Source: an uncultured Ignavibacteria bacterium
Lineage (GTDB): Bacteria; Zixibacteria; MSB-5A5; SM1-73
Reading direction: 5' to 3'
Assembly: GCA_964348415.1 (NCBI GenBank)
Contig: CAYGCR010000002.1
Coordinates: forward strand, 25,069-89,068
DNA: 64,000 nucleotides
Both the position numbers and the translations under genes were made by a program. Below are positions 2,799-45,246 of this stretch, one piece after another; within the stretch, counting starts at the first letter, position 1; each line of letters begins with the position of its first letter. Below the pieces are notes generated by a model. It ran no database searches, was not told the DNA's origin, and saw only the letters and a list, made by a program, of their open reading frames with translations.

Positions 2799-2816
2799 TT
2801 CAGTTTAGGGAAAAAG

Positions 2817-3341: not shown

Positions 3342-3385
3342 TTGAGTAGAAACAGGGCCAAAAGCTCACCTATCAGAAGGAAAAA

Positions 3386-3877
3386 GTGGGTTTAGAGGAA
3401 TACATACCGCGAGGTATACTTCTGACCACGGTCGAGAAGGCGGTCAACTGGTCGAGGAAGTCGTCGCTGTGGCCGGTCACTTTCGGGCTGGCCTGCTGCG
3501 CCATAGAGATGATGTGCACGGCCGCATCCCGCTTTGATCTGGCGCGCTTCGGCATGGAGATCTTCAGGGCTTCGCCCAGGCAGGCGGATTTGATGATCGT
3601 GTCCGGACGAGTTTCGAACAAGATGGCACCGGTGGTCAGGCTGCTTTACGATCAGATGGCGGAGCCCAAGTGGGTGATCGCCATGGGTGCCTGTGCATCC
3701 ACCGGAGGCGTGTTCAACAATTACGCCATCATCCAGGGAGTGGATAAGCTTGTGCCGGTGGATATCTATGTTCCCGGATGTCCACCCAGGCCCGAGCAGT
3801 TGATCGAGGGTATTATGAAATTACACTCCAAGATCATGAAGGAGTCGCTGAAGCGATCAATGGATGAAACGGACTAA
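3386..3877 (+). CDS. nuoB: NADH-quinone oxidoreductase subunit B, copy 2 of the tandem pair.
   Basis: GTG start with a GAAGG RBS. All three NuoB cysteine motifs are present ([22 protein letters not shown]). About 80% aa identity to copy 1, with many synonymous nucleotide differences. Confidence 0.9.
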
Positions 3878-9771: not shown

Positions 9772-10755
9772 ATGCTTGCGTTTATCATCATAACCTTGGT
9801 TAAGATAGCAGTGGTTCTGGTCGTTTTTCTGCTTCTGGTGGCTTACCTCACCTGGCTGGAAAGGAAGCTTCTGGGACACTTTCACGTCAGACTTGGTCCC
9901 ATGCGCGTAGGTCCTCACGGTCTGCTACAGCCCATCGCTGACGGCCTGAAACTCCTGTTCAAAGAAGACCTCATTCCGGCGAACGTAAACAAGTTTATGT
10001 ATAATTTGGCTCCGGTCCTGACCTTTGTCCCTGCCTTGATAATCGTGGCGGTTATCCCGTTCGGTAAAGAGTTTACGATCTTTGGGCGGCAGATAGATCT
10101 GGTGATTTCCAACTTCAACATGGGAGTACTCTACGTGCTTGGCGTCAGCTCCCTCGGTATATATGGGATGGTTTTAGCCGGGTGGTCTTCCAATAACAAA
10201 TACTCTCTTTTGGGCGGACTGAGATCGTCCGCTCAAATGATCAGCTATGAGATTTCCTTAGGTCTTTCCATAATCGGGGTTTTAATGCTCGCCGGGTCCT
10301 TAAGCTTGGTTGACGTGGTCAGTGCTCAAGATAATTTTTCTAACTGGTTCATCTTCCGTCAACCGCTTGCGTTCATCCTCTATTTAGTGTGCGCGGTGGC
10401 GGAGCTTAATCGTACTCCCTTTGATCTCACGGAGGCAGAAAGTGAACTGGTGGCGGGATACATGACCGAGTATTCGTCCATGAAGTTCGGCATGTTCTAC
10501 GTGGCGGAATACGGGAACATGATCAATCTGGCTGCGCTGTCGACGACCCTATTTCTGGGAGGCTGGCATGGTCCGTTCTTACCGCCGGTTGTGTGGTTCC
10601 TGGTAAAGATGGTCGCGTTCCTGTTCCTCTACATCTGGATAAGAGCCACCTTGCCCAGATTCAGATATGATCAGCTGATGAACTTCGGATGGAAGGTTCT
10701 GCTGCCTCTGGCGCTGCTCAATATTTTCATCACGGCAGTGATAATGGTCTTGTAG
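9772..10755 (+). CDS. nuoH: NADH-quinone oxidoreductase subunit H.
   Basis: Polytopic membrane protein with the conserved ND1 motifs: LERKLLGHFHVRLGP... and TPFDLTEAESELVAGY. Confidence 0.9.
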   Translation: MLAFIIITLVKIAVVLVVFLLLVAYLTWLERKLLGHFHVRLGPMRVGPHGLLQPIADGLKLLFKEDLIPANVNKFMYNLAPVLTFVPALIIVAVIPFGKEFTIFGRQIDLVISNFNMGVLYVLGVSSLGIYGMVLAGWSSNNKYSLLGGLRSSAQMISYEISLGLSIIGVLMLAGSLSLVDVVSAQDNFSNWFIFRQPLAFILYLVCAVAELNRTPFDLTEAESELVAGYMTEYSSMKFGMFYVAEYGNMINLAALSTTLFLGGWHGPFLPPVVWFLVKMVAFLFLYIWIRATLPRFRYDQLMNFGWKVLLPLALLNIFITAVIMVL

Positions 10756-31233: not shown

Positions 31234-32442
31234 ATGACCACCAAGTTTCAGGCCAAAGAGGCGGGGCTTACCGGCAATCTGCAGACGGTTCCCGTTTCCG
31301 ATCTGCTGCAGCTGATCAGCGCGGCTGCGAAAACGGGCATGCTTTCCATTTCGCAGGAAAGCAAGAAAAGACAGATATACTTCGTGAAGGGAAATATCAC
31401 CTGTGCCACTGCCTCGGGAACCGAAGATGAGCTTTTGGGGAACCTATTGTTGGCTCAGAAGAGGATTCCGAAAGCCGAGTTAGAACGGGCTCTAAGCCTT
31501 CAGAAGCTCACTCACAAAAGATTGGGCAGCCTGCTCCAAGAGATGGGCTTGATAAACAGAGAAGAATTGACAAAGTTTTTACGCTTCCAAGTGGAGGAGA
31601 TAGTCTACAATCTGTTTGGCTGGAGTTCCGGCGCGTTTACCTTTTACGAAGGTGAGTCGCCGCCTGCAGAACTGGTCACCACCCAGCTCAACACTATGAA
31701 CGTCATCATGGAGGGCACCAGAAGAATCGATGAGTGGATCCAAATCCAGCAGGCTCTTCCCTCGGACGATGTGAAGGTTCAAACCATCAAGAATCCTAAG
31801 ATAAAGTCAAATACCTTGACCATGAGCGTAGCGGAACTGCAGGTGCTGCCCCTGATAGACGGAGAGAAGAACGTTTCCGAGCTTATACAGACCAGCCCTG
31901 TGAGCGAATTCCACACGCGCAAAGCACTGTATAACTTGATCAGTTCAGGGTTGGTTGAGGCCGGCGAGAAAAAGAAGACGACCAAACACAAGATCAGTGA
32001 TGATAAGCTTCTTTTGTACGTGATAATCAAACTATACTCTCAGTCATATCAAACGCTGGAAAGAATGGCCTCCCGAAAATTAGGGCAGGGAGCGAAGAGG
32101 ATTTTAAAGAGATGTTTTGACGCTCAAAAATCCCTGCACCCTTTCCTAACTAAACTGGAAAGCTCTAAAGACTTCTTGGATTTCAGTCACCTGGAAAGCT
32201 CGGCGGGTAAGGTGACACAACCTATCCGATTTCACAAGCTGATGAACGCACTGAACGGTCTGCTTCTGGAATTTCTGAGGGCAGTATCCACAAGTTTGGG
32301 GAGAAACATAAGCAGACAGATCATATCCCAGATCAAGAAGGAAGCGGCCCAGGTCGTGGCCGAGCAAAGAGGAATCTCAAAAGAGTATGAGTTGGAGGAG
32401 GAGATTCTGAAGACTCTGAAAGAGAGTCAGCTGACTGCTTAG
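31234..32442 (+). CDS. PATAN/DUF4388-domain protein. This domain family has been noted in association with MglA-like GTPase loci.
   Basis: The N-terminal ~110 aa match the DUF4388/PATAN pattern: LTGNLQTVPVSDLLQLISAAAKTGMLSISQE...IYFVKGNI...ASGTEDELLGNLL. It is co-directional with and upstream of the mglBA cluster. Confidence 0.6.
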   Translation: MTTKFQAKEAGLTGNLQTVPVSDLLQLISAAAKTGMLSISQESKKRQIYFVKGNITCATASGTEDELLGNLLLAQKRIPKAELERALSLQKLTHKRLGSLLQEMGLINREELTKFLRFQVEEIVYNLFGWSSGAFTFYEGESPPAELVTTQLNTMNVIMEGTRRIDEWIQIQQALPSDDVKVQTIKNPKIKSNTLTMSVAELQVLPLIDGEKNVSELIQTSPVSEFHTRKALYNLISSGLVEAGEKKKTTKHKISDDKLLLYVIIKLYSQSYQTLERMASRKLGQGAKRILKRCFDAQKSLHPFLTKLESSKDFLDFSHLESSAGKVTQPIRFHKLMNALNGLLLEFLRAVSTSLGRNISRQIISQIKKEAAQVVAEQRGISKEYELEEEILKTLKESQLTA

Positions 32443-32471
32443 CAAAACTACACAAGTTCTCGAGGGTAAAG

Positions 32472-32873
32472 ATGGTTAAAAGACTCAGCTTTGTCGTTAT
32501 CTTGGGACTCATATTTTTTGCCGCAGGAGTCTGTTGCGCTCAGGAAGAGACTGAGGCTTTGCGGGCAACAGTTAGTGGTTCAGGCTCTTCATCGCCTGTT
32601 CCGGCGCTTCTGGACGTCTTACTTCTGGCGGGGGCGTTCGCCTGTTTTGTGATTTCCGTGAGGGTTAAGTCATTCTTGAGGGATGGGGAGCTGGCTTCGG
32701 GATGGACTCTTTTTTCGCTTTCTTTTGTGCTTCTCTTCGTGTCTCAGGTTCTGAGTTTATCCTTAAGTGCTGGGTTTCTGCAGGTCTCTCCCAGCATAAT
32801 CTCATCCCTGCGTGTTTTGTTCATCCTTCTTCTGGCTTCCGGTATCCATTTCATGAAGAAGGTTCTGAGTTGA
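32472..32873 (+). CDS. Small membrane protein (signal peptide plus 3 TM helices).
   Basis: Hydropathy pattern only. No family was recognised. Confidence 0.45.
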   Translation: MVKRLSFVVILGLIFFAAGVCCAQEETEALRATVSGSGSSSPVPALLDVLLLAGAFACFVISVRVKSFLRDGELASGWTLFSLSFVLLFVSQVLSLSLSAGFLQVSPSIISSLRVLFILLLASGIHFMKKVLS

Positions 32874-33111
32874 TAGGACACGGTTAAGCTCGTCGGCTTT
32901 ATGAACTTTCGTATACCCTCCAAATCCAGAAGGTGAGAGCACTTAGCCCCATTTTTTAATCCACTAAAGTTAAGTAAACGAATATGCTTGTCGATAAGTT
33001 TAGTAGTCGGATCTAGAGGGCTTTTCACGCTTCTTTCAGACGCCCCATTCTGGCAGATTCCTCTGCCGGGGATGGATTGTTGTTGTGTGACTGCCGGCCG
33101 GGGCGGTGTAA

Positions 33112-33960
33112 TTGAAGCCGAGAGGAATTATGCAACCCGGTTCGCAAGTGGACGAGAGAATCTCTAAGTGTGAAGAGATTCTGTCTCGTAATCCTAAGTC
33201 TGTGATTTTCGCGGCTCTGTCGGATGCCTACCGCAAGAAGGGAGATTTGGCCAGGGCGTTCCATATTTGCGGCCAAGGATTGAAATCTCATCCCGACTAT
33301 GGCCCGGGGCATCTGGTGATGGCGAAAATCAACATGGAAAGAGGGATGTACTCGGAGGCAGAAAGGGAACTGGCCCTGGCGGTCCGGGCAGATGGGAAGA
33401 CGAGAGCCACGGAGCTTCTTTTAGCTCAGATTTTAACAAAGAGGGGTCAAATAAAAGGGGCCAAGAAGATCTTGGAAAAGCTCAGAACCAGTGATCCAGC
33501 AAATGAGCTGATCGGTGAGCTGCTGGAGAGCATAAGGCAAAAAGAGAAATCAGACAAGCCCAGCCGTGCCATGGCAGCGGTGGATGAACGATGGCATATC
33601 GAGAAGGTCGCGGACCTTGAAGATGGCGTACACTGTTTGAAATCCTTGCCCGGGGTAATAGGAGCTCTGGTGATAGGAGAGGACGGATCAGTAATGGAGA
33701 GCAAGGTCAAACCTGAACTAGATCCAGAGGTGCTGGCCGCAATCGCCAACAGCATCACCGGATGTGTCAAGAACGGGATATCCGACGTGGGGTTTGGGGA
33801 ATATGCCGACATCTTGGTGGAAACTGGAAATCTCCAGCTGTGGATTACAGGTTTGAAGGAGACGTCTCTACTGTTATGTTGTGACCCCGAAACCAATATG
33901 GGGGCCTTGAGAATAAAAGTGACTGAACTTGTGGGACATATCTGGGGAAATGATGCATAA
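33112..33960 (+). CDS. TPR-repeat / Roadblock-LC7 (MglB-like) fusion protein.
   Basis: The N-terminal ~140 aa are TPR-like, with AYRKKGDLARAFHICGQGLKSHPDYGPGHLVMAKINMERGMYSEAERELALA. The C-terminal ~100 aa carry a Roadblock-like pattern: IGALVIGEDGSVMES...AAIANSITG...ADILVETGNLQLWITGL. Confidence 0.65.
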   Translation: MKPRGIMQPGSQVDERISKCEEILSRNPKSVIFAALSDAYRKKGDLARAFHICGQGLKSHPDYGPGHLVMAKINMERGMYSEAERELALAVRADGKTRATELLLAQILTKRGQIKGAKKILEKLRTSDPANELIGELLESIRQKEKSDKPSRAMAAVDERWHIEKVADLEDGVHCLKSLPGVIGALVIGEDGSVMESKVKPELDPEVLAAIANSITGCVKNGISDVGFGEYADILVETGNLQLWITGLKETSLLLCCDPETNMGALRIKVTELVGHIWGNDA

Positions 33961-33974
33961 AAAAGGGGAGTAAA

Positions 33975-34916
33975 GTGGCTAAGGATTACAGTAAGGAGCT
34001 GAGGGGAATCCTTCTGGTCTCACTTTTCATCGTGGTGGTACCGTTGGTATTCTTTCCTAAGGATTTCGGGTTAAAATTAGGATCTTCACTCGTTCTGCCC
34101 TTCGCCCTGGAGCTGGGGTGGTATCTGCTGGTTCTATTCATTATGTTTTCGGAAACAACAGCTGCGAGGGTATTGCTGTTTGCTTTGTTGACACTGGCTT
34201 ACCGTATCGGCCTGGGGATTGGATTTGGCATCCTTCTTCTGGTTATGTTCTCCCTGCCTTTATCCTCCGCCTTAGGCTTAGGTATCTACCGGTATGCGCC
34301 AGCTTTTTTGCTTCAGGCCTTGATGTCGCCATTCGCGCTCAAGTCGCTTTTTCAAGTTCTCACCCAAAGAGTAAAGAGAACACAGGAAATTCAAGTACCG
34401 GAAACGTCGGATGCAAAGTTTGCCCAGAAGACCGCCCGGCCGGCTCTGTCCGATGCTCCGCCTGAATTGGATAAAGAGTCGGATGGGGCGAAAACAGTTT
34501 CTTCCGAAAAGGAGAGCAGGGTGATAGGAGAAAACAAATTGGAACACATCTTACACTATCTAAGAGAATATGCCGGAGTCAAAGCCGCCGTTCTGCTCGA
34601 TCATGAGGGTCTGGTGATAGCTGAGGATTCTCGCGATTTTGATCCGGAAACTGTCGCCTGTTTCGGTCGATGCTTGAAGGAAATGAACGACCAAATGCTT
34701 CACAGGATAGGGCAAAAGACTGCGGAACGGATTGGAATTCATACAACAGATATGTGGATATGCTTAAACCAGGTAGGAAACTTGACGTTGCTGGTACTGT
34801 CGGATCGCCGCACGGACGAACTTCTTTCAGTTCGAATATCGCAGTCCACCGGAATGATAAGAAAACTTCTCAGCGAGAGATACCAGCCAGGAGTGTTAAA
34901 AGCCGTGGAGGTATGA
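33975..34916 (+). CDS. Polytopic membrane-anchored Roadblock/LC7-domain protein.
   Basis: Four predicted TM helices in the N-terminal 125 aa, a linker, then a Roadblock-like segment: VKAAVLLDHEGLVIAEDSRDFDPETVACFGRCLKEMND...NLTLLVLSD. Confidence 0.65.
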   Translation: MAKDYSKELRGILLVSLFIVVVPLVFFPKDFGLKLGSSLVLPFALELGWYLLVLFIMFSETTAARVLLFALLTLAYRIGLGIGFGILLLVMFSLPLSSALGLGIYRYAPAFLLQALMSPFALKSLFQVLTQRVKRTQEIQVPETSDAKFAQKTARPALSDAPPELDKESDGAKTVSSEKESRVIGENKLEHILHYLREYAGVKAAVLLDHEGLVIAEDSRDFDPETVACFGRCLKEMNDQMLHRIGQKTAERIGIHTTDMWICLNQVGNLTLLVLSDRRTDELLSVRISQSTGMIRKLLSERYQPGVLKAVEV

Positions 34917-34917
34917 C

Positions 34918-35268
34918 ATGTACAAGATATTGGAGGAATTGAACAAGACTACCGGGATCAACGGAAGCATGGTAGTGGGTCAGGACGGAATCGTGATTGC
35001 CGCGGATTTGAATTCCCAACTTCAGGACGAGGCGGTTGGTGCCTTGGCCGCTTCCATCGTTGGCACGGTTAAGAAATCAATGGAACGCCTTTCTAATGAA
35101 GACCTGAAGCAGATAACCGTGGAGGCCGATAAGGGTAAGTTTTTCTTTGCTGATGTGGGCATAGGCATCTTGGCGGTCACCACGGATCCCCAGGTGAACG
35201 TAGGATTGGTTCGTCTCGAGATCAAGAACGCGGCAGAAAAGATAAAACAGATACCCAAGTCCGTCTGA
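34918..35268 (+). CDS. mglB: MglB-type Roadblock/LC7 protein, the cognate GAP-family partner of MglA.
   Basis: 116-aa Roadblock-fold pattern: INGSMVVGQDGIVIAADL...ASIVGTVKKS...FADVGIGILAVTTD. Its ATG overlaps the upstream stop, and it lies immediately upstream of mglA as in the myxobacterial mglBA arrangement. Confidence 0.8.
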   Translation: MYKILEELNKTTGINGSMVVGQDGIVIAADLNSQLQDEAVGALAASIVGTVKKSMERLSNEDLKQITVEADKGKFFFADVGIGILAVTTDPQVNVGLVRLEIKNAAEKIKQIPKSV

Positions 35269-35300
35269 AGCTCACCCAAGCCGCCAAAGGGAGATAGAAG

Positions 35301-36275
35301 ATGGCATCCATAAACTATGCGTCCAAGGAGATCTCCTGCAAGATAGTCTTCTACGGTCCCGGCCTCTCCGGAAAGACAACCAATCTCCAATATGTTCACA
35401 AAAAGATTCCGCCTCAGACCAGGGGCGAACTGATCTCTCTGGCCACCGATCAGGATAGGACACTCTATTTTGATTTTCTTCCGGTGGACATCGGGAAGGT
35501 ACACGGGTTTTCCACCAAGTTTCAACTTTACACCGTGCCCGGTCAGGTGTACTACAACGCTACCCGGAAACTGGTGCTAAGGGGAGTGGACGGTCTGGTA
35601 TTTGTGGCGGACTCTCAGAAAAGCAAAATGGATGAGAACATAGAGAGCTTTCAGAACCTGGTGGAGAATCTATCAGAGTACGGATATAAAATAGACAGAA
35701 TTCCTGTAGTATTTCAGTATAACAAAAGGGACCTTCCCAACATCAGTCCTGTGGTGGAATTGGAGAAGACGTTGAACCCCAAAGGCTTGCCCCATTTCGA
35801 AGCCATCGCTACCAGGGGAATAGGCGTGTTCGATAGTCTGAAATGCATTAGTAAATTGGTCCTGGATCAAGCCAAGCGCAAGCAACTTTTCCCTGAAAGG
35901 GAGATGGCTGGGCAAGAAGCCGAAAAAGTGTCGGCCGATGGTGAGCTCTCGCAGACGCCGGAAAAAGAGCCGATTGCAGCAAAGGTGACCTCCACACCTA
36001 CGGCAACTGAAGTTTCAGGCCAACGGCCAGTTGCCACCTTAGCTAAGAAGGAAGTGGAGCCCTCCCCGAAGCAGATAATTCCAGAGCCACTAAAAGCTCA
36101 GCAGGAAAGAGTCCCGGAGGTCGGGCCGGACGCGGGCGAGTTCGCCGAAGAGGACGAGAAGATGGAAAGGACCTTGGCCAAAGACAGCTCCACCATAATA
36201 AGCTGGTCTGCCGGCAAGACGGCCAAGCCGGGAGGATTCTTTTTGTGGCGTTGGTTGAGCAAACTTTTCAAATAG
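35301..36275 (+). CDS. mglA: MglA-family Ras-like small GTPase with a ~130-aa C-terminal low-complexity extension.
   Basis: The N-terminal ~190 aa align closely to Myxococcus MglA: P-loop GPGLSGKT, intrinsic Arg in DRTLYFDF, catalytic Gln in TVPGQ, and NKRD G4. The C-terminal extension, rich in E/P/A/K/T, ends in GGFFLWRWLSKLFK. Confidence 0.85.
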   Translation: MASINYASKEISCKIVFYGPGLSGKTTNLQYVHKKIPPQTRGELISLATDQDRTLYFDFLPVDIGKVHGFSTKFQLYTVPGQVYYNATRKLVLRGVDGLVFVADSQKSKMDENIESFQNLVENLSEYGYKIDRIPVVFQYNKRDLPNISPVVELEKTLNPKGLPHFEAIATRGIGVFDSLKCISKLVLDQAKRKQLFPEREMAGQEAEKVSADGELSQTPEKEPIAAKVTSTPTATEVSGQRPVATLAKKEVEPSPKQIIPEPLKAQQERVPEVGPDAGEFAEEDEKMERTLAKDSSTIISWSAGKTAKPGGFFLWRWLSKLFK

Positions 36276-36288
36276 ACAGAGTGGAGGT

Positions 36289-36825
36289 GTGAAATTGAGA
36301 CAGGAGGACCTTGTAATCTACGAGGAGCAAATCGAGAAGATAGAAAAAGCTCTGATGAAGTTGATCAAGGGCGCACAAGCCAAGTGTGTTCTCCTGGTGG
36401 ATAAAGATGGGCATCTGATCACTCGACACGGTTTCACTCAGTCTTTGGATACCACTGCCTTGGCGGCGCTTCTGGCGGGAAGTTTCGCTTCCACCCGAGA
36501 GATCGCCCGTCTTGTTGGAGAGCCGGAATTTTCAGTTCTTTTCCACCAAGGCAAAAAGGATCATATCCACATAACCCTGGTGGGCGAAAGGACCATTCTG
36601 GCGGTCATCTTTGATGATCGGACAACCATCGGTATGGTTCGGCTGTATGCCAAGGAGGCCTCGGAGAATCTGAAGAGAATCCTGTACCTCACCCAGCATC
36701 AGAAGCCCCGAGGCGAACCGGAAAAAGAAGCAGATGCAGATTCAGAGTTCTCCACCTCTTTGGAAAGCAGGCTGGATGATATCTTCTCCGATAAGCCCGA
36801 GAAAGAGGATATCCCAACGGGATGA
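36289..36825 (+). CDS. Roadblock/LC7-domain protein with an acidic C-terminal tail. It is a second stand-alone MglB/MglC-like paralogue.
   Basis: Roadblock-like segment: AKCVLLVDKDGHLITRHG...AALLAGSFASTREIA...ILAVIFDD. The tail is EPEKEADADSEFSTSLESRLDDIFSDKPEKED. Start is GTG or TTG. Confidence 0.65.
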   Translation: MKLRQEDLVIYEEQIEKIEKALMKLIKGAQAKCVLLVDKDGHLITRHGFTQSLDTTALAALLAGSFASTREIARLVGEPEFSVLFHQGKKDHIHITLVGERTILAVIFDDRTTIGMVRLYAKEASENLKRILYLTQHQKPRGEPEKEADADSEFSTSLESRLDDIFSDKPEKEDIPTG

Positions 36826-36954
36826 GCGTGCTCAAAGTCCGGGAGACATGTGGTCGGGCTGTGCTGAAAGTGGCCAATCTCTCCAAGAAATTCTGAGGGC
36901 TGGAACGTCATTGGATGTGAGACCCTAAGTGAGCCTTTGATTATCAGCTAAGTT

Positions 36955-38646
36955 ATGTCACGTGAACTGGGACAAATGCTAGTTAAGGCGGGCAAGATAT
37001 CCGAGGAACAGCTTGCCCAGGCCTTAGAGTCACAGAAACAGAGCAAAGAGAAATTAGGCGATGCTCTCATAAGAACGGGTGCGCTCTCCGGTGAGGAGGA
37101 GCTCTCAGAGTTTATCGGGAGACAGCTAAATATCGGCGCTTTGAGGCTTTCCGACATTGAGCTCAACCCTGAGGTGGTCAAGATGATTCCCCCGGACATC
37201 GCCCGAAAGTTTAATGTCATCGCCATCAGCAAGCTGGGCAAGACATTGATAGTGGCCATTTCCGACCCCAACAACATCTATGTTCTGGACGCCATAAAGT
37301 TCATCTCCGGGCACTCGGTCCAGCCGGTCATAAGTCCAGAGAAAGCCATTCAGAAGGCCATTGATGCCTACTATCAAGACACCGGAGGATTGGACCAGAT
37401 TCTTAAGGGACTGAAAGAAGAGGATCTGCAGGTCATCGAGGAGAACGAAGACATTCCTACCGAACAGGATCTAAGGTCCCAGGTGCAGGACAAGCCTTTA
37501 GTCAAGTTGGTGGACTCTATCATCGCGGACGCTATTCGAAGAGGATGTTCGGACATCCATATCGAAAGTTATGAGAAGCGAATAAGAGTCAGATACAGAT
37601 TGGATGGTCGTTTGCAGGAAATGTCTCCCTTGCCCTTTAAATATCGTGCGGCCCTGGTTTCCCGGGTAAAGATAATGGCTGACTTAGACATCTCCGAAAG
37701 AAGACTACCCCAGGACGGCAGGATTAAGGTGAAGTTCGGCGAGAGGGCGGTGGATCTAAGGGTATCCGTGTTGCCCACCATATTCGGTGAGAAGGTGGTA
37801 ATGCGCATTCTGGATCCCAGAAGCGTTAACGTGAATCTGACCAGACTGGGATTCTCGGAAAACTCACTCAGGCAGTTCCAAAAAGCCATTCACTTTCCCT
37901 ACGGCATGATACTTGTGACCGGACCCACCGGGAGTGGTAAAACTACCACTCTCTATTCAGCTTTGAAGCAGATTAACCACACGGACATCAATATAACGAC
38001 CGCCGAGGACCCGGTGGAATTCAATTTTGACGGCATAAATCAGGTGGCGGTGAAAAGTGAGATAGGGTTAAGCTTTGCCGCGTCCTTACGATCGTTTTTG
38101 AGACAGGACCCGGACGTGATCATGGTGGGAGAGATCAGAGATGGCGAGACTGCAGAGATCGCGGTGAGAGCCGCACTAACCGGACATCTGGTGTTCTCCA
38201 CGCTGCACACCAACGATGCTCCCAGTACCATCGATCGGCTGATCGATATGGGCATTCCCAATTATCTGGTGGCCTCCTGCGTCAGGTTGGTCATGGCTCA
38301 AAGAATGGTGCGCAAGATCTGTCCCAGCTGCAAGCGCGTGGCTCAAGTTCCCAAAGCCACTTTTGAGATGTTAGGATTCGGCGATGAGCAGATAAAAGAT
38401 CTGAAGGTTTATGAAGGCAAGGGTTGCTCCGAATGCAATGATACCGGCTATTCCGGGAGAACCGGGATTTTTGAGGTGATGCCGATAAGTCCTGAGATCG
38501 AGAAGATGATCGTTTCCAACGCCTCCAGCGCAGAGATAAGAGAACAGGCCATATCCGAGGGCATGCTGACTTTGAGAATTGCCGCACTGGAAAAGCTGAA
38601 GCAGGGCACCACCACTGTGGGAGAGGTCTTAGCGGTGACTTCCTAG
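36955..38646 (+). CDS. pilB: Type IV pilus assembly (extension) ATPase PilB, of the GspE family.
   Basis: N-terminal T2SSE_N domain, Walker A VTGPTGSGKTTTL, the tetracysteine CxxC...CxxC motif (CPSCKR...CSEC), 563 aa. Confidence 0.85.
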   Translation: MSRELGQMLVKAGKISEEQLAQALESQKQSKEKLGDALIRTGALSGEEELSEFIGRQLNIGALRLSDIELNPEVVKMIPPDIARKFNVIAISKLGKTLIVAISDPNNIYVLDAIKFISGHSVQPVISPEKAIQKAIDAYYQDTGGLDQILKGLKEEDLQVIEENEDIPTEQDLRSQVQDKPLVKLVDSIIADAIRRGCSDIHIESYEKRIRVRYRLDGRLQEMSPLPFKYRAALVSRVKIMADLDISERRLPQDGRIKVKFGERAVDLRVSVLPTIFGEKVVMRILDPRSVNVNLTRLGFSENSLRQFQKAIHFPYGMILVTGPTGSGKTTTLYSALKQINHTDINITTAEDPVEFNFDGINQVAVKSEIGLSFAASLRSFLRQDPDVIMVGEIRDGETAEIAVRAALTGHLVFSTLHTNDAPSTIDRLIDMGIPNYLVASCVRLVMAQRMVRKICPSCKRVAQVPKATFEMLGFGDEQIKDLKVYEGKGCSECNDTGYSGRTGIFEVMPISPEIEKMIVSNASSAEIREQAISEGMLTLRIAALEKLKQGTTTVGEVLAVTS

Positions 38647-38773
38647 GCAGTCAGTAGGAATAGGCGAAGCCAAGGGGAACAGGAGGTCAGGTTTAAGAAT
38701 CGGTATGCCGGGTCGATAATATATATGAAAGTGGCCCTCCTTTGGCTTTGAAAAGGAAAAGTGGGGATAAAAG

Positions 38774-39868
38774 ATGGTTACTTTACGAGAACTTCTGGAA
38801 CTGATGGCAAAAAAGAACGCTTCAGATCTTCATCTTACCGTGGGCTCGCCACCCCAGCTCAGAATAGACGGAAAGCTGGTCAAGACTGATTACGACATCT
38901 TGACGGCAGATGAAACCAAGAAGTTGGCCTACAGCGTGATGACTGAAAAGCAACGGCAGACATTCGAGGAAAAAAGCGAGCTGGATCTTTCCTTCGGAAT
39001 TGAAAACTTGAGCAGATTCAGATGCAACATCTTCATGCAGAGGGGCAATGTGGCGGCAGCTTTAAGACAGATTCCTTTTCGCATTCCGAGTTTTGAGGAG
39101 TTGGGCATACCCAAGGTAGTCTCGGAGTTGGCCGACCTGCCCAGGGGTTTAGTCTTGGTGACCGGGCCGACTGGAAGCGGAAAATCTACCACCTTGGCCG
39201 CCTTGATCAACAAGATAAATCTGGAAAGGTATTGCCACATTCTCACGGTGGAGGATCCCATTGAATACCTTCATCGACACAATTGTTCCCTGATTAACCA
39301 GAGGGAGGTTTATGCCGACACCGCCTCTTTTGGCAAGGCTTTGAAATACGCCTTGAGAGAGGATCCCGACGTGGTGCTGGTGGGAGAGATGAGAGATTTG
39401 GAGACCATGGAGGCGACCCTGAACATCTCCGAAACCGGACATCTGGCATTCGCCACCCTGCACACCAACTCCTGCGCTGAATCGATAAACAGAATCATCG
39501 ACGTTTTTCCCACCAATCAGCAGGAGCAGGTCCGGGTGACCGTCTCTTTTGTTTTGCAGGCGGTGATAAGCCAGCAGCTGATTCCCAGGATAGGAGGAGG
39601 AAGGGTGTTGGCTCTGGAGATTATGATCTGCACACCGGCCATCAGAGCTTTGATCAGGGATGACAAGATTCATCAGATCTACAGTCTTATGCAGGCAGGG
39701 CAGAAGTTTGGCATGAGGACCATGAATCAAGGTTTAGCTGAGCTCTACATCAAGCATAAGATAACCTTGGGGGACGCTCTGGGAAGAAGCTCAAACATCC
39801 AGGAGCTAAATGAGATTTTGGCCAGAAAATCTGATGCCAGCCGGCAGCGGTCGGCCATTGGCGCTTAG
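38774..39868 (+). CDS. pilT: Twitching-motility retraction ATPase PilT.
   Basis: Walker A VTGPTGSGKSTTLAAL, the His box ATLHTNS and the PilT-type N-terminus ELLELMAKKNASDLHLTVGSPP. Confidence 0.85.
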   Translation: MVTLRELLELMAKKNASDLHLTVGSPPQLRIDGKLVKTDYDILTADETKKLAYSVMTEKQRQTFEEKSELDLSFGIENLSRFRCNIFMQRGNVAAALRQIPFRIPSFEELGIPKVVSELADLPRGLVLVTGPTGSGKSTTLAALINKINLERYCHILTVEDPIEYLHRHNCSLINQREVYADTASFGKALKYALREDPDVVLVGEMRDLETMEATLNISETGHLAFATLHTNSCAESINRIIDVFPTNQQEQVRVTVSFVLQAVISQQLIPRIGGGRVLALEIMICTPAIRALIRDDKIHQIYSLMQAGQKFGMRTMNQGLAELYIKHKITLGDALGRSSNIQELNEILARKSDASRQRSAIGA

Positions 39869-40019
39869 CTGGAAGAGGCGAGGCTATACTATACAGAGAC
39901 ATGACTTGCAGTGGAGGGTAGCTAAAGGAGCGCCGATGTATGGTTGAAGGCACCGGATCGGGCTCTGGTTAAGGTATTCAGGCTTTGGCGGTAACGTTTT
40001 CTGAGGGAAGGAGGACAAA

Positions 40020-41219
40020 TTGCCAGTTTTCACCTATAAGGGAAGGACGTCGGCGGGAACTCAGGTTCAGGGTGAGCTGAGGGCAAAAAACCGAGCTGAA
40101 TTGGAGAGGGTCTTGAGGAACAGGAAAATCCTGGTTTCTCACATCTCCACCAAGCCTTCCCAGGTAAGCATAAGAATTGGGTCCGGAATAAAGAAGGTGC
40201 ACATCTCCAGGTTCACCCGGCAATTCGCCACCATGATCGGGGCCGGACTCCCCATGGTGCAGTGTCTGGAGATATTATCCCAGCAAATGGAATCAGCACA
40301 ACTGAGGAAGATCATCAGCGATGTAAAGGAGAGCGTGCAGTCCGGAACCACTCTGGCCGAAGCTTTGTCCCGGCATAAGAAAGTCTTCGATGATCTTTAT
40401 GTCAACATGGTGGACGCAGGTGAGATCGGAGGCGCTCTGGACGTCATTCTGGTACGCCTGGCCACATATCGGGAAAAGGCCGATGCCCTGGCCCGCAAGG
40501 TTAAAGGGGCGCTAATCTATCCGGCGGTGGTGATGACTGTGGCCATAGCGGTGACCTTTATCATGCTGACTTACATAGTTCCCATCTTCGCCAAAATGTT
40601 TCATGGTCTGGGTGCGGAGCTACCCGGTCCTACCAGATTCGTCCTCTCTTTGAGCGGCTTTCTCAGAGGTAACATACTGACCGGGTTGGTGTTGCTAATC
40701 CTGGTGATAGTCGGATACAGATTCTATTCCAAGACTGATCGGGGCAAATACAATATTGACGCCCTGAAGCTGAAAATCCCGCTTATCGGAGACCTGATCA
40801 GGAAAAGCTCCATCTCAAGGTTTTCGCGGACCCTGGGAACCCTGATCTCATCCGGTGTTCCCATCCTGGATGCTCTGGAGATAACCGCTCGCGCTTCTGG
40901 CAACCGGGTGATACATGATGCCATAAAGAGGTCGGTTCTGTCCATCGCAGAAGGAGAGACAATAACGCAACCTCTGAGACAGTGCGGGGTCTTCCCTCCC
41001 ATGGTTACTCAGATGATTTCCGTCGGAGAAAAGACCGGCGGCCTGGATGACATGCTTTCCAAGATCGCTGACTTTTATGACGAAGAGGTGGATGCTGCGG
41101 TGGCGGCGTTAACCTCCATCATCGAGCCGGTGATAATTGTGTTCATGGGAATTGTGGTCGGAGGAATCCTGATAGCCATGTATCTCCCAATGTTCGAGAT
41201 CATTGGCAAGATCCAGTAA
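40020..41219 (+). CDS. pilC: Type IV pilus inner-membrane platform protein PilC, of the GspF family.
   Basis: Duplicated GspF domains with 3 TM helices, about 400 aa. It lies immediately downstream of pilB and pilT. Confidence 0.85.
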   Translation: MPVFTYKGRTSAGTQVQGELRAKNRAELERVLRNRKILVSHISTKPSQVSIRIGSGIKKVHISRFTRQFATMIGAGLPMVQCLEILSQQMESAQLRKIISDVKESVQSGTTLAEALSRHKKVFDDLYVNMVDAGEIGGALDVILVRLATYREKADALARKVKGALIYPAVVMTVAIAVTFIMLTYIVPIFAKMFHGLGAELPGPTRFVLSLSGFLRGNILTGLVLLILVIVGYRFYSKTDRGKYNIDALKLKIPLIGDLIRKSSISRFSRTLGTLISSGVPILDALEITARASGNRVIHDAIKRSVLSIAEGETITQPLRQCGVFPPMVTQMISVGEKTGGLDDMLSKIADFYDEEVDAAVAALTSIIEPVIIVFMGIVVGGILIAMYLPMFEIIGKIQ

Positions 41220-41365
41220 ATACAACCTGACTGCGCTGAGCAAGTCAAAAATACATCTAACCTAACCTTGCACCACTGCGGCTCTTAGCGGTGGTGTAAG
41301 TTTTTAAGCATTTTTAGGTTTCAAATCCTGAACAGTTTCTTATTACGTCCGGAAAGCGAATCCGA

Positions 41366-43225
41366 ATGAACAGAAGAACGTGGTTTCATTTTTTGAGAAA
41401 GCTCAACGCCGGACTTGAGCAGACATTTTTCGGAAGGGACCGAAACGGCAAGCAAATACAGAGGTATGCGAGCAAGTCAGAGGTCTCCCTCTCCAGAATC
41501 CCCTGGTTTCTGATATCCCGCCTTTCCATATTTGTCCTCTTACTGATAATTGTGGTTCTGTTTTTCCAGATGCCGGATTCTCTGGTCCTTGCCTTCACCA
41601 CCTACTCCTTCATAACCCTGGCTCTTCTTCTGCTCATTGCGTTTGATCTGAAGCAAACTTATCATCTGCTGTTCAGTGCCGTAGTTGTTTTGCAGCTGAT
41701 TCTGGAGATCATAGTCGAAACCGGGTTGGTACATCACACCGGAGGCATGGGCAGTCCCTTTGCCGTCCTTTTTGTTTTGACTATACTATCCGCAAGTCTG
41801 GCTTACGGCTTAGTCGGAAGCGTGTGTATGGCCGGCTTGTCCAGCCTGGCATACGCCTCTGTCCTGTGGGTTGAGGAAGGTTTGGAACTATCTTTTAAAG
41901 GCCTCCTTTACGCTAGTGATGCTTCATTCTATGAAGCATTTCTCTACATCTGCACCTTCTTTTTGGTGGCTTTCATAAGTGGCTATCTGACGCAAAGATT
42001 GAAAGCAAAGGGCCAGGAGCTGTGGACTGCTTCCCTGGAATTGGACAAAATAAAGGCGGATACAGACGAGATACTAAGACACCTGAAAAGCGGCCTCATT
42101 ACGATCGACGCCTGGGGCAGGATTGTTTATTTCAACCGGGCAGCAGAGGAGATATTGGGATATTCCGAAAGCGAGGTAAAAGGGAGAGACTGCCGGGAGG
42201 TATTCCGGCAAAGGATGCCTCAGCTGGCAGAAAAAATAATTCAGGTGATAAAGCTCAACGAGGAACATGCCAGGGGTCTGCTTTATATCGAGGACAAAAA
42301 CGGGCGAAAGATTCCCATAGGCATAAGCACTTCCATTCTGGGGGACACGGAAACGGGCGTGAGAGGTGTGATCGCCATATTCCAGGATATAAGCGAGGCC
42401 ATGAAGCTGGAGGAGAGAATCCGGGTGGCCGACAAGCTGGCTGCAGTTGGCGAACTCTCTGCCGGAATCGCCCACGAGATACGAAATCCTTTGGCCTCTA
42501 TCTCAGGATCGGTGGAAGTTTTGAAGGAGGAGCTTGCCCTGTCCCGGGAGAATCGAAATCTTCTGGACCTGGTAATCAAAGAGACAGACAGGCTGAATCG
42601 GATTGTGACTGATTTTCTGACTTATGCCCGCATCGGCCCCTCGTTGTTAGGCAAAGTGGAGTTGCTGCATCTCCTGGATGACGTCATAGAGATTGCGAGG
42701 AAGCATCCTTGCTATAAGGAAAGTGTCTCCTTTCACAAGATCTTCTCAACGCAGGTGCGATACGTGGTGGGCGAAGAAAATCAGATAAAACAGATATTCT
42801 TGAACCTGCTGGTGAATGCGCTGGAGGCCATGGAGGGCAGGTGGGGTAAGATAGTGATAAGTGATAGAAGCTTGAGTCAACTGGATAAATTCTATTTTCG
42901 GGACGAGGAGCCGGAGGAATCCGAGTGGGTGCCCATTGCGATTGTAGATGAAGGAAAAGGAATGACAGAAGAGCAAAAACAGAAGATTTTCTCCCCGTTT
43001 TATTCTGGCAAAAAAAATGGCACCGGCCTGGGGCTGGCCATAGTACAGAGGCTGGTGAACAACTTAGGCGGAAAGATAGAATTCCGCAGCCAGGAGGGTA
43101 AAGGCTCGGCTTTTGTGGTATATCTGCAGAAGTACACGAAACAGAAGGTTAAGCTCTTTCAGACAGCACCCACCGGGAATCTGGCAAACCTCGACGTTTC
43201 CACTTCGGAATTTCACCTAACCTAA
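41366..43225 (+). CDS. pilS: PilS-like membrane sensor histidine kinase: multi-TM N-terminus, PAS, HisKA, HATPase_c.
   Basis: Six TM helices in the N-terminal ~200 aa, a PAS-like region, H-box AHEIRNPL, and G1/G2 boxes (DEGKGM, GTGLGLAIV). No response-regulator gene follows. Confidence 0.75.
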   Translation: MNRRTWFHFLRKLNAGLEQTFFGRDRNGKQIQRYASKSEVSLSRIPWFLISRLSIFVLLLIIVVLFFQMPDSLVLAFTTYSFITLALLLLIAFDLKQTYHLLFSAVVVLQLILEIIVETGLVHHTGGMGSPFAVLFVLTILSASLAYGLVGSVCMAGLSSLAYASVLWVEEGLELSFKGLLYASDASFYEAFLYICTFFLVAFISGYLTQRLKAKGQELWTASLELDKIKADTDEILRHLKSGLITIDAWGRIVYFNRAAEEILGYSESEVKGRDCREVFRQRMPQLAEKIIQVIKLNEEHARGLLYIEDKNGRKIPIGISTSILGDTETGVRGVIAIFQDISEAMKLEERIRVADKLAAVGELSAGIAHEIRNPLASISGSVEVLKEELALSRENRNLLDLVIKETDRLNRIVTDFLTYARIGPSLLGKVELLHLLDDVIEIARKHPCYKESVSFHKIFSTQVRYVVGEENQIKQIFLNLLVNALEAMEGRWGKIVISDRSLSQLDKFYFRDEEPEESEWVPIAIVDEGKGMTEEQKQKIFSPFYSGKKNGTGLGLAIVQRLVNNLGGKIEFRSQEGKGSAFVVYLQKYTKQKVKLFQTAPTGNLANLDVSTSEFHLT

Positions 43226-43474: not shown

Positions 43475-43560
43475 ACAGAAAGAAAAGTTTCGTAGGTCAG
43501 GTGCCCTGAGCACCTGACAAATAAAGGTGACAGGAGCACGGGGTCGCTGGACCACAAGCT
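43475..43560 (+). repeat. Left copy of a ~60-bp direct repeat carrying a degenerate CAGGAGC-N5-GCTCCTG palindrome, upstream of the orphan ORF.
   Basis: Aligned by eye to 44181..44254 at about 80% identity: AAAGTTTCGTAGGTCAGGTGCCCTGAGCACCTGACAAATAAAGGTGACAGGAGCACGGGG. Confidence 0.5.
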
Positions 43561-43587
43561 GACTTTTGTCGTTAGGAGGCTGCAACA

Positions 43588-44001
43588 TTGTCAACCAAAA
43601 AAAAGAAACTCAAAGCAAAGAGCATTGTAAGCCGACTGACAGGCATTTCTACTCCAGTCGGTGGGATTTCCTGGACACCACCAGTTGATGAACGGGACAA
43701 AGCAAAACGGTTGGTGACTTTTCTTGAAGATCGACGCGCTCTTTACCATCCTTATAATATGGAAGTAGCTGACTATGTTGTCGAGTCTATCCTTGAAATA
43801 CGCGAGCGGCTCACATCAGATCTCGAACATGTGAACGAATCTTCTGTCTTAGGAGAGAGTCTTATCGCAATGCGTGCAGCTTGTCGGAAATTCCTGGACA
43901 AGGTACAAAGACCACCGAGAAAAAGATATTGGTTGGGACCCGACTTCATCTACGGCCTTGGTGAACTAAGAGCATTATTCGGCATTCATGTTGCAAGATA
44001 G
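43588..44001 (+). CDS. Hypothetical protein (137 aa) with no recognisable family. It sits in a cassette-like arrangement bracketed by direct repeats.
   Basis: Strong AGGAGG RBS 7 nt upstream of the TTG start. The ORF is clean and no domain was recognised. Confidence 0.5.
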   Translation: MSTKKKKLKAKSIVSRLTGISTPVGGISWTPPVDERDKAKRLVTFLEDRRALYHPYNMEVADYVVESILEIRERLTSDLEHVNESSVLGESLIAMRAACRKFLDKVQRPPRKRYWLGPDFIYGLGELRALFGIHVAR

Positions 44002-44180
44002 GCATGTGCATACGATCTAGAACTTGAGAAAGATTTGGCCTCAATTCTTCCTGCAGAACCTGAGCTAGATAAGAGGAAGGGAAGGAGAACTAAAGCAAAG
44101 TGAATTCTCCCAACAACCCACTCGAAAGGGAAGCGGCAAAAAGGCGCCGCGCCCCTTAGCTTTGCGTTATGCGGACGAAG

Positions 44181-44254
44181 AGTTTCGTCGGTTAGATGCC
44201 CTGCGGTCCTGACAAATGAAAGTGTCAGGAGCACGGGGCTCCTGACCTACTAGG
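44181..44254 (+). repeat. Right copy of the ~60-bp direct repeat, with a perfect CAGGAGCACGGGGCTCCTG palindrome.
   Basis: AGAGTTTCGTCGGTTAGATGCCCTGCGGTCCTGACAAATGAAAGTGTCAGGAGCACGGGGCTCCTGACCTACTAG. A third copy of the palindrome, CCAGGAGCCCGGAGCTCCTGAGCTACTACC, lies at 44541..44570. Confidence 0.55.
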
Positions 44255-44651
44255 TGGCTCTCTTACCACAAGGAGCAAATTCACCATTTATGGTGAGTCT
44301 CGAACCACAACTTTAATGGTGAAAAGGATACCTCCCCCGTTATGGGAGGCAAACATATGAAACATGCACACAAACTCCCCTTGTGGGAGACGAATAATCC
44401 TTTTCCTTCGACCCTGTGTCTCAGGACGAAGTGCAGGACCGAAGGGCAGGGTGAACTCTCTTGAAGCACCGCACAACGGTTGAAAAAAATTCAAAACGAA
44501 CACCAGTAAGGTCAGTAAGGTCAGAAATACCAGAGAAGTGCCAGGAGCCCGGAGCTCCTGAGCTACTACCTAATCTCCCGCCATTGTCCGCTCCCGGACG
44601 TGTTCCTTCCTCTCCCCTGGGGGAGAGAATTAACTTGAGGGGGACATACCA

Positions 44652-45095
44652 GTCATTGCGAGCGCAGCGAAGCAATCTCCCTGGCACATCAACCGACGCT
44701 TTGAGATTGCCTCGTCGTCCCCGACAAAGGCGGCGTACTCCTCGCAATGACACTCACACGCCCGTCATTGCGAGCGTAGCGAAGCAATCTCCCTGGTACA
44801 TCAACCGACGCCTTGAGATTGCCTCGTCGCCCCCGCCAAATGCGGGGGACTTCTCGCAATGACGCTTACATACCCGTCACTGCGAGCGCAGCGAAGCAAT
44901 CTGCTTGGTACATCAACCGACGCCTTGAGATTGCCTCGTCGCCCCCGCCAAAGGCGGGGTACTCCTCGCAATCACACTTACACACCCGTCATTGCGAGCG
45001 ATAGCATAGCAATCTCCCTGGTACGTCAACCGAGGCTTTGAGATTGCTTCGTCGTCCCCGCCAAAGGCCGGGCACTCCTCGCAATGACATCAGAG
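44652..45095. repeat. Four tandem copies of a ~112-bp nested-palindromic element. Units start at 44652, 44764, 44876 and 44984.
   Basis: Unit consensus: GTCATTGCGAGCGCAGCGAAGCAATCTCCCTGGTACATCAACCGACGCCTTGAGATTGCCTCGTCGCCCCCGCCAAAGGCGGGGTACTCCTCGCAATGACACTTACACACCC. Terminal inverted repeats are GTCATTGCGAG / CTCGCAATGAC, inner ones GCAATCTC / GAGATTGC. Copies are about 85-90% identical, and the unit is contiguous with no spacers. Confidence 0.8.
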
Positions 45096-45246
45096 GTTTC
45101 TTGCACAGACGCAATGTTCTCTGTCCTTGAGCAAAAGGGCCAGGTTGAAGACCCCGCCACAGGGGCAACAGGAGGGAACTGTAGTTGCTCGATTTATCGA
45201 GCTCAATAAACGCCCAATGAATTGGGCAACTACGTTTCTTGAGCGC

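Follow-up and report, generated by a model that had tools for sequence, protein, structure and literature searches.

The gene cluster described here surrounds mglA, the gene of a small GTPase, in a 64,000-nucleotide (nt) stretch of DNA from an uncultured Ignavibacteria bacterium that GTDB places in the Zixibacteria (assembly GCA_964348415.1, contig CAYGCR010000002.1, positions 25,069 to 89,068 of the forward strand). We refer to this whole stretch as the window. Positions 31234–43225 of the window hold eleven plus-strand open reading frames (ORFs), all in one direction and with no substantial competing ORFs, and the ORF list thus bears out the eleven-gene series that a first-pass annotation had proposed. 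In order (g1 to g11, Table 1), they encode a PATAN protein, a small membrane protein, a TPR-Roadblock fusion, a membrane-integral Roadblock protein, a small stand-alone Roadblock protein, MglA, MglB, and the type IV pilus (T4P) proteins PilB, PilT, and PilC, followed by a PilS-like kinase. The gaps within g3–g7 are only 1–32 nt long; elsewhere, they are 127–256 nt.

The remainder of the window is chromosomal housekeeping DNA, with nuo genes, ATP synthase, SMC, and FtsY. Hidden Markov models (HMMs) built from the four Roadblock families of the cluster detect exactly four Roadblock ORFs in the whole 64-kb window. Because there are only these four, and because the gene order is kept in divergent relatives, the cluster is judged not to have arisen by chance.

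Table 1. Features of the cluster, with positions in the window (aa, amino acids; T4aP, type IVa pilus)
Feature	Position	Strand	Description and matches
g1	31234..32442	+	402-aa PATAN (DUF4388/PatA_N) protein; Pfam PF14332 117.5 bits (cutoff 25), E 4.8e-34
g1 insertion, aa 64–122	31423..31599		MshEN-like helical insertion in the PATAN domain
g2	32472..32873	+	133-aa small membrane protein; signal-peptide-like N-terminus and 3 hydrophobic segments by hydropathy
g3	33112/33130..33960	+	TPR-Roadblock fusion; Pfam TPR_19 E 5e-12, Robl_LC7 31.4 bits (cutoff 23)
g4	33975..34916	+	Membrane-integral Roadblock protein; Pfam Robl_LC7 23.5 bits, borderline at a cutoff of 23
g5	34918..35268	+	116-aa stand-alone Roadblock protein, LC7/archaeal type; Pfam 52.6 bits
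g6, MglA	35301..36275	+	324-aa ORF
g6, G domain (aa 1–195)	35301..35885	+	P-loop, R53, T78, Q82
g6, linker (aa 196–310)	35886..36230	+	Acidic, low-complexity; rich in E, A, P, K, S
g6, C-terminal tail and stop codon	36231..36275	+	GGFFLWRWLSKLFK; predicted amphipathic membrane-targeting helix
g7, MglB	36289..36825	+	178 aa; Roadblock (Pfam about 52 bits), conserved C-terminal LDDIF motif, acidic tail
g8, PilB	36955..38646	+	T4aP extension ATPase; TIGR02538 728 bits (cutoff 675.65)
g9, PilT	38774..39868	+	Retraction ATPase; TIGR01420 486 bits (cutoff 319.1)
g10, PilC	40020..41219	+	Platform protein; Pfam T2SSF twice, E 4.4e-69
Terminator-like hairpin	41267..41300	+	Between pilC and pilS; 13-bp stem, then a T run
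g11, PilS-like	41366..43225	+	Sensor histidine kinase; 6TM_PilS (48.8 bits, cutoff 27), PAS, HisKA, HATPase_c

MglA, MglB, and Three Further Roadblock Proteins

The product of g6 is 324 aa long, not about 195 aa, and carries a C-terminal extension of about 130 aa. It matches Myxococcus xanthus MglA (6h17_A, phmmer) at an E value of 1.8e-78 over aa 1–193, and the alignment shows that the intrinsic Arg finger R53, T78 (the Thr that replaces the PM3 Asp), and the catalytic Gln Q82 are conserved. Judged by these residues, g6 is a bona fide and catalytically complete MglA. It represents a variant MglA architecture, and its length is no ground for excluding it from the family. Past aa 193, searches of the PDB and Pfam gave no match. 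The linker in this extension differs in length among orthologues, and whole MglA orthologues range from 273 to 411 aa.

The extension ends in ...KPGGFFLWRWLSKLFK, and nowhere in the protein is the helical hydrophobic moment higher than in this tail (0.75–0.89). Among the extended MglA proteins of the Zixibacteria-type loci and of a Fibrobacteria locus, all 20 have 4–11 Lys or Arg residues in their last 20 positions, and in all 20 a Lys/Arg stretch is followed by an aromatic motif of the type GFF(L/K)(W/R), for example in KKKRGFFKRLFGIN and KKKRGFLKRLFGIK. Several of the tails, the two examples among them, nearly equal the membrane-targeting sequence of Escherichia coli MinD. The g6 tail also resembles it, and it is predicted from its sequence to bind the membrane.

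In the Planctomycetota, MglA ends differently. There, a hydrophobic C-terminal segment of about 20 residues, resembling a transmembrane (TM) helix, is present in 119 of 120 clusters, the sample being the 120 clusters closest to one such MglA (P0387–P0506), which are 304–362 aa long except for one ORF of 495 aa. These proteins are predicted to be tail-anchored small GTPases. The 495-aa ORF (P0470) resembles an MglA-MglB fusion, with Pfam matches to Robl_LC7 and Arf/Gtr1; it could be a real fusion or an artefact of frameshift or assembly. The Planctomycetota are taken as a case of independent convergence. Since two different membrane devices are predicted on the same GTPase, with one neighbourhood of PATAN, TPR-Roadblock, and Roadblock genes shared by the Planctomycetota loci examined and the Zixibacteria-type loci, we argue that membrane attachment of MglA is probably the selected property. 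It appears that the link to the membrane lies chiefly on MglA itself.

MglB is encoded directly downstream, by g7. The first-pass annotation had placed it at g5, which was the wrong gene: g7 matches M. xanthus MglB (6izw_B) at 2.4e-35 over aa 7–167, the C-terminal helix region included, and g5 as a single sequence reaches just 0.02. The match of g7 to the NCBIfam MglB model (6.4e-26, 91 bits) lies below the 200-bit equivalog cutoff. The LDDIF motif is kept, in the alignment, from Zixibacteria to Anaeromyxobacter (Myxococcota). On these matches, g7 is the MglB orthologue and the putative MglB-type GTPase-activating protein (GAP) of MglA.

The other three Roadblock proteins are of a different kind. 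The g5 family profile matches, in the PDB, the Asgard Roadblock protein 7yh1 at 2.9e-19, CvnB5 at 7e-9, the dynein light chain roadblock at 1.7e-8, LAMTOR2 at 9e-5, MglB at 4e-4, and MglC (7ct3) at 0.06. Compared with the value for the archaeal Roadblock protein, both the single-sequence and the profile values for MglB led to the rejection of g5 as MglB, and the value for MglC led to its rejection as an MglC orthologue. By sequence comparison, g5 is thus a generic LC7-type Roadblock protein, orthologous to neither. PDB sequence searches with g3 and g4 likewise gave no match to MglC.

The true start of g3 is likely the ATG at 33130, which gives a protein of 276 aa; its orthologues are 276–282 aa long. 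In the AlphaFold2 (AF2) model (mean predicted local distance difference test score, pLDDT, 85), eight TPR helices are followed by a linker and a Roadblock domain, the latter part (aa 163–273) having a pLDDT of 80–93. Foldseek aligns the model with 7yh1_A (TM-score 0.82), LAMTOR2 (5y3a_B, 0.84), and MglB (about 0.8), and comparison with the g5 family by hhalign gives a probability of 99 and an E value of 9e-18.

The g4 protein consists of about four predicted TM helices (aa ~6–138), a disordered linker (137–184), and a Roadblock domain (185–302). A PDB sequence search with g4 gave no meaningful match, and for this reason its fold was assigned by hhalign and by AF2 with Foldseek. The Roadblock domain matches the g5 family with a probability of 96.3 (E 1.5e-9) and the MglB family with a probability of 87.7 (E 3.4e-6). 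Modelled by AF2 with family alignments, aa 185–302 show the canonical a-b-b-a-b-b-b-a order of helices and strands at a pLDDT of about 90. In Foldseek, where the domain reaches TM-scores of 0.82–0.87, it aligns with M. xanthus MglB (6hjm; TM-score 0.82–0.85, root-mean-square deviation 1.8–2.0 Å), Asgard Roadblock proteins, and LAMTOR2. The TM part of the model is of moderate confidence only (pLDDT 50–80). From the basic residues past the last TM helix, an N-in/C-in topology is predicted, which would make the Roadblock domain cytoplasmic. Conservation in the TM region equals that in the Roadblock domain, with invariant E46, Y50, and R77, together with P23, P28, and G32; such strong conservation hints at a role beyond passive anchoring.

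The g4 family forms 118 clusters at 90% identity, whose members share as little as 40% identity with the query and are all about 309 aa long. Those that carry a taxon name all belong to the Zixibacteria, and an identical copy has been deposited from a metagenome-assembled genome (MAG) of ‘candidate division Zixibacteria’. An exhaustive search with the g4 profile gave 103 representatives at E<=1e-30, nearly all of 300–350 aa. The same search returned about 25 stand-alone Roadblock proteins of 133–156 aa that match just the Roadblock part of the profile; they share the signature DELL(S/N/K)VRI with g4, and the soluble version has a conserved C-terminal end, ME(A/E)xxV.

Pfam, profile–profile comparison, and AF2 with Foldseek therefore agree with the first-pass annotation that the cluster encodes four Roadblock paralogues, of which one is joined to a polytopic membrane domain and another to a TPR scaffold. 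As that annotation had supposed, the literature found describes no membrane-integral Roadblock partner of MglA, and it holds nothing relevant on C-terminal membrane anchors of MglA or on a Zixibacteria mgl/pil cluster (most subscription journals lay outside the search). Term searches of PMC4316618 gave no mention of TM or TPR fusions or of extensions of MglA.

The two genes at the upstream end of the cluster encode a PATAN protein and a small membrane protein. In g1, the 122-position PF14332 profile is stretched across aa 13–168 by an internal helical insertion, which is kept in orthologues; the C-terminal half (about 230 aa) is conserved and uncharacterised. The orthologues of g1 occupy the same position in all full-length loci. 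Within the insertion, aa 68–119 match the NCBIfam c-di-GMP motif NF053729 (c-di-GMP, cyclic di-GMP) at 2.5e-12, and the insertion aligns with Vibrio cholerae MshE (5htl). It has two 24-residue motifs separated by exactly the 5-residue spacer of the MshEN c-di-GMP receptor. The second half-site (RLGSLLQEMGLINREELTKFLRFQ) is near-canonical, and the first lacks Arg1 and Gly10. PilB (g8) also has an N-terminal MshEN-type motif (aa 5–57, NF053729 at 1.4e-14). Despite these HMM matches, the relaxed published MshEN pattern finds few or no matches among g1 orthologues (3 of 20) and PilB. We therefore claim no c-di-GMP binding for either protein; the insertion in g1 could either take in a c-di-GMP signal or be a degenerate relic. 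A Pfam search with g2 gave no match, and g2 belongs to no known family. Its orthologues stand between the PATAN and TPR-Roadblock genes in 17 loci, including the locus L086, described below, in which the g4-type Roadblock protein is soluble.

The pilus genes follow MglB. The match of g10 to the NCBIfam PilC models (1e-145) is under their equivalog cutoffs. No pilR was found 3' of g11, where the next ORF encodes a DUF6650 protein. This small gene (43588–44001), just 3' of pilS, is flanked by an 83-nt direct repeat (43482–43564 and 44177–44259) whose copies are 77% identical and have internal inverted-repeat character. Further on, between the cluster and the ATP synthase operon, lie four tandem units of about 112 nt (44644–45113) that are 63–91% identical; translated, they yield the repetitive ORFs found there. 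Unrelated to the cluster, a minus-strand ORF at 18320–22573 encodes a 1417-aa BcrAD/BadFG-type ATPase fused to a DUF2229 CoA-enzyme-activase domain.

The Cluster Across Genomes

A scan for the MglA G domain, with one genome per GTDB species, gave 80 loci (designated here by L numbers), and their six-frame ORFs were compared with the proteins of the window. Loci with divergent g4 relatives (46% and 57% identity) show the same order from the PATAN gene onward. In L001 it runs through PilS; in L003 it stops at PilC, and a TPR gene stands in place of pilS. The complete eleven-gene order is found in L001, L005, L009, L011, L012, L015, and L018, and L014 has the full order with no detectable g2. In L002, L004, L006–L008, L010, L016, and L017, the order is present as far as the contig reaches. 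The gene order holds even where the similarity of g4 is just 1e-14. Thus, the adjacency to mglBA-pilBTC on which the first-pass annotation relied is conserved in relatives, among them L001, L003, and L086. The record titles of L005–L009, L013, and L015 read ‘uncultured Ignavibacteria’, ‘Ignavibacterium sp.’, or ‘Gemmatimonadota’ and may be imprecise; the cluster proteins of these loci are 73–89% identical to the Zixibacteria MglA, and all of them except L013 have the Zixibacteria gene order.

The membrane domain of g4 is more restricted than the cluster. On the 60-kb contig of L086, the order is PATAN, small membrane protein, TPR-Roadblock, g4-type Roadblock, small Roadblock, a 398-aa MglA, MglB, PilB, PilT, PilC, and PilS, and the protein at the g4 position (P0370, positions 10001–10471) is a soluble g4-type Roadblock protein. 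MglA and PilB of this locus are 70–77% identical to their counterparts in the Zixibacteria loci, and L086 represents a deep-branching Zixibacteria-like lineage. Soluble versions also occur in L084, L088, and L089. It follows from L086 that the four-Roadblock arrangement does not depend on the presence of the membrane domain; the TM domain belongs to a single Roadblock paralogue and is lineage-specific.

Outside this group, the arrangement is found in parts. The Planctomycetota loci L039, L061–L063, L072, and L077 have a giant PATAN gene, a TPR-Roadblock gene (undetected in L061), a small Roadblock gene, a long MglA, and MglB; the Planctomycetota loci examined are without pilBTC and without a g4-type gene. 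The small Roadblock proteins of planctomycetes were considered as equivalents of the TM-Roadblock protein and rejected, as they have no TM segments; what look like N-terminal extensions on them are artefacts of ORF calling in high-GC DNA. The arrangement is also partly present in one Brocadiaceae and one Fibrobacteria locus. In Nitrospirota, Acidobacteriota, Myxococcota, and most Gemmatimonadota, a plain mglB-mglA pair is present, with an MglA of 194–225 aa (194–199 aa in the first three phyla and 225 aa in the Gemmatimonadota).

Other long MglA proteins were also noted. In a Fibrobacteria MAG (L075, positions 2049–3569), a 506-aa MglA has an extension of about 300 aa that ends in KKKGFFDGLFRKDNK; this MglA is flanked by a small Roadblock gene upstream and MglB downstream. 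Long homologues in L069 (Sumerlaeaceae), in L081, and in L083 (Vicinamibacteria) are 357–413 aa long, lack an adjacent MglB and an obvious membrane tail, and have extensions that look different.

A Candidate Polarity Module and Its Alternatives

On balance, the cluster is probably an expanded, membrane-associated MglA/MglB polarity module, linked to pilB-pilT-pilC and pilS in Zixibacteria-type genomes. Such a module would work as follows. The tail of MglA would keep the protein at the cytoplasmic membrane, and the long linker would let the G domain reach its partners; the tail may parallel the amphipathic helix at the C-terminus of MinD and the polybasic or lipid anchors that eukaryotic small GTPases have. 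MglB, as GAP, would switch MglA off. The g3, g4, and g5 proteins, as Roadblock homodimers or heterodimers, could by analogy provide platforms that localise or regulate MglB and MglA: in Myxococcus, MglC with RomR recruits MglB (PMC10329633, PMC4719450), and MglB with RomY is a further example (PMC9481161). Within such a platform, g4 would be the part fixed in the membrane, and g3 would bring in a partner through its TPR domain, much as MglA together with the TPR protein SgmX stimulates T4P (PMC7519303). The PATAN protein might couple the MglA switch to the pilus motor. PATAN genes occur near mglA and mglB (Makarova 2006, as cited in PMC4316618), and PATAN response regulators bind the T4P motor in Synechocystis (bioRxiv 10.1101/2021.06.11.447907, by its title). 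The output would be spatial control of PilB (extension) versus PilT (retraction) at the PilC platform, that is, of twitching direction or polarity.

Several observations weigh against this interpretation. Membrane binding of the MglA tail is predicted from sequence only, and the MglA tails of L018, L013, and L012 have an unremarkable hydrophobic moment. Scans for promoters and terminators gave counts no higher than shuffled expectation, with one strong hairpin only, after pilC. Operon structure is consequently inferred from spacing and synteny alone, and the hairpin is just suggestive, as the number of terminator-like sites in the region does not exceed the shuffled expectation. Neither pilA nor pilMNOPQ adjoins the cluster within the window. 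The adjacency to pilBTC is absent beside the related modules of Planctomycetota, Fibrobacteria, and Brocadiaceae, and therefore the module is not obligatorily tied to T4P. Finally, all of the sequences come from metagenome-assembled genomes of uncultured organisms.

A broader proposal is more tentative, and we put it forward as a possibility that falls short of being probable: the clusters may represent an undescribed class of membrane-tethered MglA switches, in which a GTPase with a linker like a hypervariable region acts with three or four Roadblock paralogues to position the T4P motors. The linker would end in a polybasic amphipathic helix in Zixibacteria-type genomes and Fibrobacteria, or in a TM tail anchor in Planctomycetota. 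One Roadblock protein would be integral to the membrane in Zixibacteria, and the platform of GTPase and Roadblock proteins would be membrane-bound.

How MglA is tethered is where the first alternative departs. The first-pass annotation had cast the Roadblock set itself as the membrane tether of MglA: the four Roadblock proteins would form a Ragulator-like hetero-oligomer, anchored by the polytopic g4, that holds MglA beside the pilus ATPases. The tight gene block with its four Roadblock folds is consistent with this idea, as is the membrane-integral g4, whose Roadblock domain is predicted to be cytoplasmic by the AF2 model and by basic residues that follow the last TM helix. Moreover, Roadblock domains are known to act as modules for dimerisation and as carriers of GTPases (PMC3747258), and g3, g4, and g5 resemble LAMTOR2 about as much as they resemble MglB. 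However, MglA owns a conserved membrane-type tail, the cluster of the deep-branching L086 is complete with a g4-type Roadblock protein that is soluble, and the Planctomycetota, which have no g4-type paralogue, have an MglA with a predicted C-terminal TM tail instead. The soluble variant and the conserved MglA tails favour the tail of MglA as the tether, and a Ragulator-like tether now appears doubtful.

The likeness to Ragulator-Rag (LAMTOR1–5 with RagA/C) that the first-pass annotation had drawn holds in part. Several Roadblock-fold proteins and a small GTPase at a membrane are found in both, and the Roadblock domains of g3, g4, and g5 align with LAMTOR2 at TM-scores of 0.78–0.84, although the sequence similarity is weak (9e-5 at best). 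It does not extend to the GTPase, which is an MglA without a Roadblock domain: its extension is of low complexity, unlike the C-terminal Roadblock domain of a Rag-type GTPase, and with one GTPase gene in the cluster there is no sign of an obligate GTPase heterodimer. Nor was a counterpart of LAMTOR1, the lipidated scaffold that wraps two Roadblock heterodimers, detected, there being no Pfam match to LAMTOR1 among the cluster proteins, a negative that covers Pfam and no structural search for such a scaffold. The g2 protein and the TM domain of g4 differ from an extended wrapping peptide in being hydrophobic membrane proteins, and anchoring here would occur via a polytopic TM domain, the tail of the GTPase itself, or both. 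Membership in the Ragulator-Rag system was consequently not accepted, and the resemblance is an analogy only.

The second alternative assigns the membrane domain a sensory role: g4, perhaps with g2, would perceive a membrane or envelope cue through its TM domain and pass it via the Roadblock domain to MglA. This would accord with the conservation of the TM region, with its invariant residues given above, and with the co-conservation of g2 next to the g4-type gene. The loops between the TM helices, however, are very short and leave no extracytoplasmic sensing domain, and L086 retains g2 even though its Roadblock protein has no TM domain. A precedent is provided by the Streptomyces conservon, in which CvnA (a membrane kinase), CvnB (a Roadblock protein), CvnC, and CvnD (an MglA-like GTPase) are encoded together, and a membrane-associated heterocomplex of Roadblock and MglA-family proteins forms (PMC4316618). 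The g5 family profile matches CvnB5, as noted. Yet the cluster has no CvnA-type kinase and no CvnC (DUF742) gene, its sole kinase being of the PilS type (6TM_PilS), and membership in the conservon family was rejected. In contrast to the conservon, the GTPase here has R53, the intrinsic Arg finger, and Q82, as does M. xanthus MglA, the Group 1 prototype (a likeness set by residues, not by phylogeny), and it is the Roadblock protein that bears the membrane domain. We regard the sensor as rather unlikely.

The weakest alternative, that the extra Roadblock, TPR, and PATAN genes serve the pilus ATPases or another NTPase and lie beside mglA-mglB through shared regulation or hitch-hiking, is clearly unlikely: Roadblock/LC7 proteins do regulate various NTPases (Koonin and Aravind 2000, cited in PMC4316618), generic archaeal or dynein-type Roadblock proteins are closer to g5 and g3 than MglB is, and PATAN domains bind pilus motor proteins (bioRxiv 10.1101/2021.06.11.447907, by its title), but the gaps within g3–g7 are short, as given above, and the TPR-Roadblock gene, the small Roadblock gene, or both stay directly upstream of mglA in Planctomycetota, Brocadiaceae, and Fibrobacteria, where pilBTC is absent, so that the conserved partner is mglA and not the pilus genes.

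Known Systems and Wider Meaning

Judged by the orthology of its G domain and of its MglB, each borne out in sequence comparison, the cluster belongs to the MglA/MglB polarity-module family. It departs from the known modules of this family in gene order, in MglA architecture, in the number and kind of its Roadblock proteins, in its membrane components, and in its linkage to pilBTC-pilS. The M. xanthus module comprises MglA, MglB, MglC, RomR/RomX, and RomY, with the effectors SgmX, FrzS, and SopA controlling PilB/PilT, and it shares orthologous MglA and MglB with the cluster. In both, a Roadblock protein is present besides MglB (MglC in Myxococcus), and a TPR protein and the T4P ATPases stand in the functional circle. 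Nonetheless, the order is mglB-mglA in Myxococcus and Roadblock-mglA-mglB here. There are three extra Roadblock proteins here, one integral to the membrane and one fused to TPR; by sequence, none is orthologous to MglC. The cluster lacks RomR/RomX genes and has the direct linkage to pilBTC-pilS. MglA differs as well, with its 130-aa extension and membrane-type tail. To our knowledge, Myxococcus MglA finds its polar location through protein partners and has no membrane anchor of its own. It is about 195 aa long and is reported, in the Myxococcus studies cited above, to be localised through such partners.

Individual parts of the cluster resemble other systems. As in the cyanobacterial PATAN (PatA-type) response regulators, a PATAN domain is encoded together with pilus motor genes; g1, however, has no receiver domain and has instead the MshEN-like insertion and the uncharacterised C-terminus of about 230 aa. 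The MglA tail has a flexible linker, a basic cluster, and an aromatic-rich amphipathic C-terminal helix, as do tails of the MinD/FtsA type and the polybasic hypervariable regions of Ras/Rho. In contrast to these, it is borne by an MglA G domain and has no lipidation motif, and its membrane binding is a prediction only.

For the uncultured phylum Zixibacteria, the cluster is a candidate T4P polarity system, whose function we infer from MAG sequences. Its variants form a series, namely an amphipathic tail with a TM-Roadblock protein, an amphipathic tail with a soluble paralogue, and a TM tail anchor without the paralogue, and this series could be used to ask how platforms of GTPases and Roadblock proteins evolve. 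The cluster suggests that a bacterial small GTPase may act at the membrane somewhat as eukaryotic ones do. If this is true, bacteria would also use membrane-anchored platforms of small GTPases and Roadblock proteins, which typify eukaryotic trafficking and mTORC1 signalling, and the module would correspond in function, among prokaryotes, to the membrane-anchored small GTPases of eukaryotes with their Roadblock/longin platforms.

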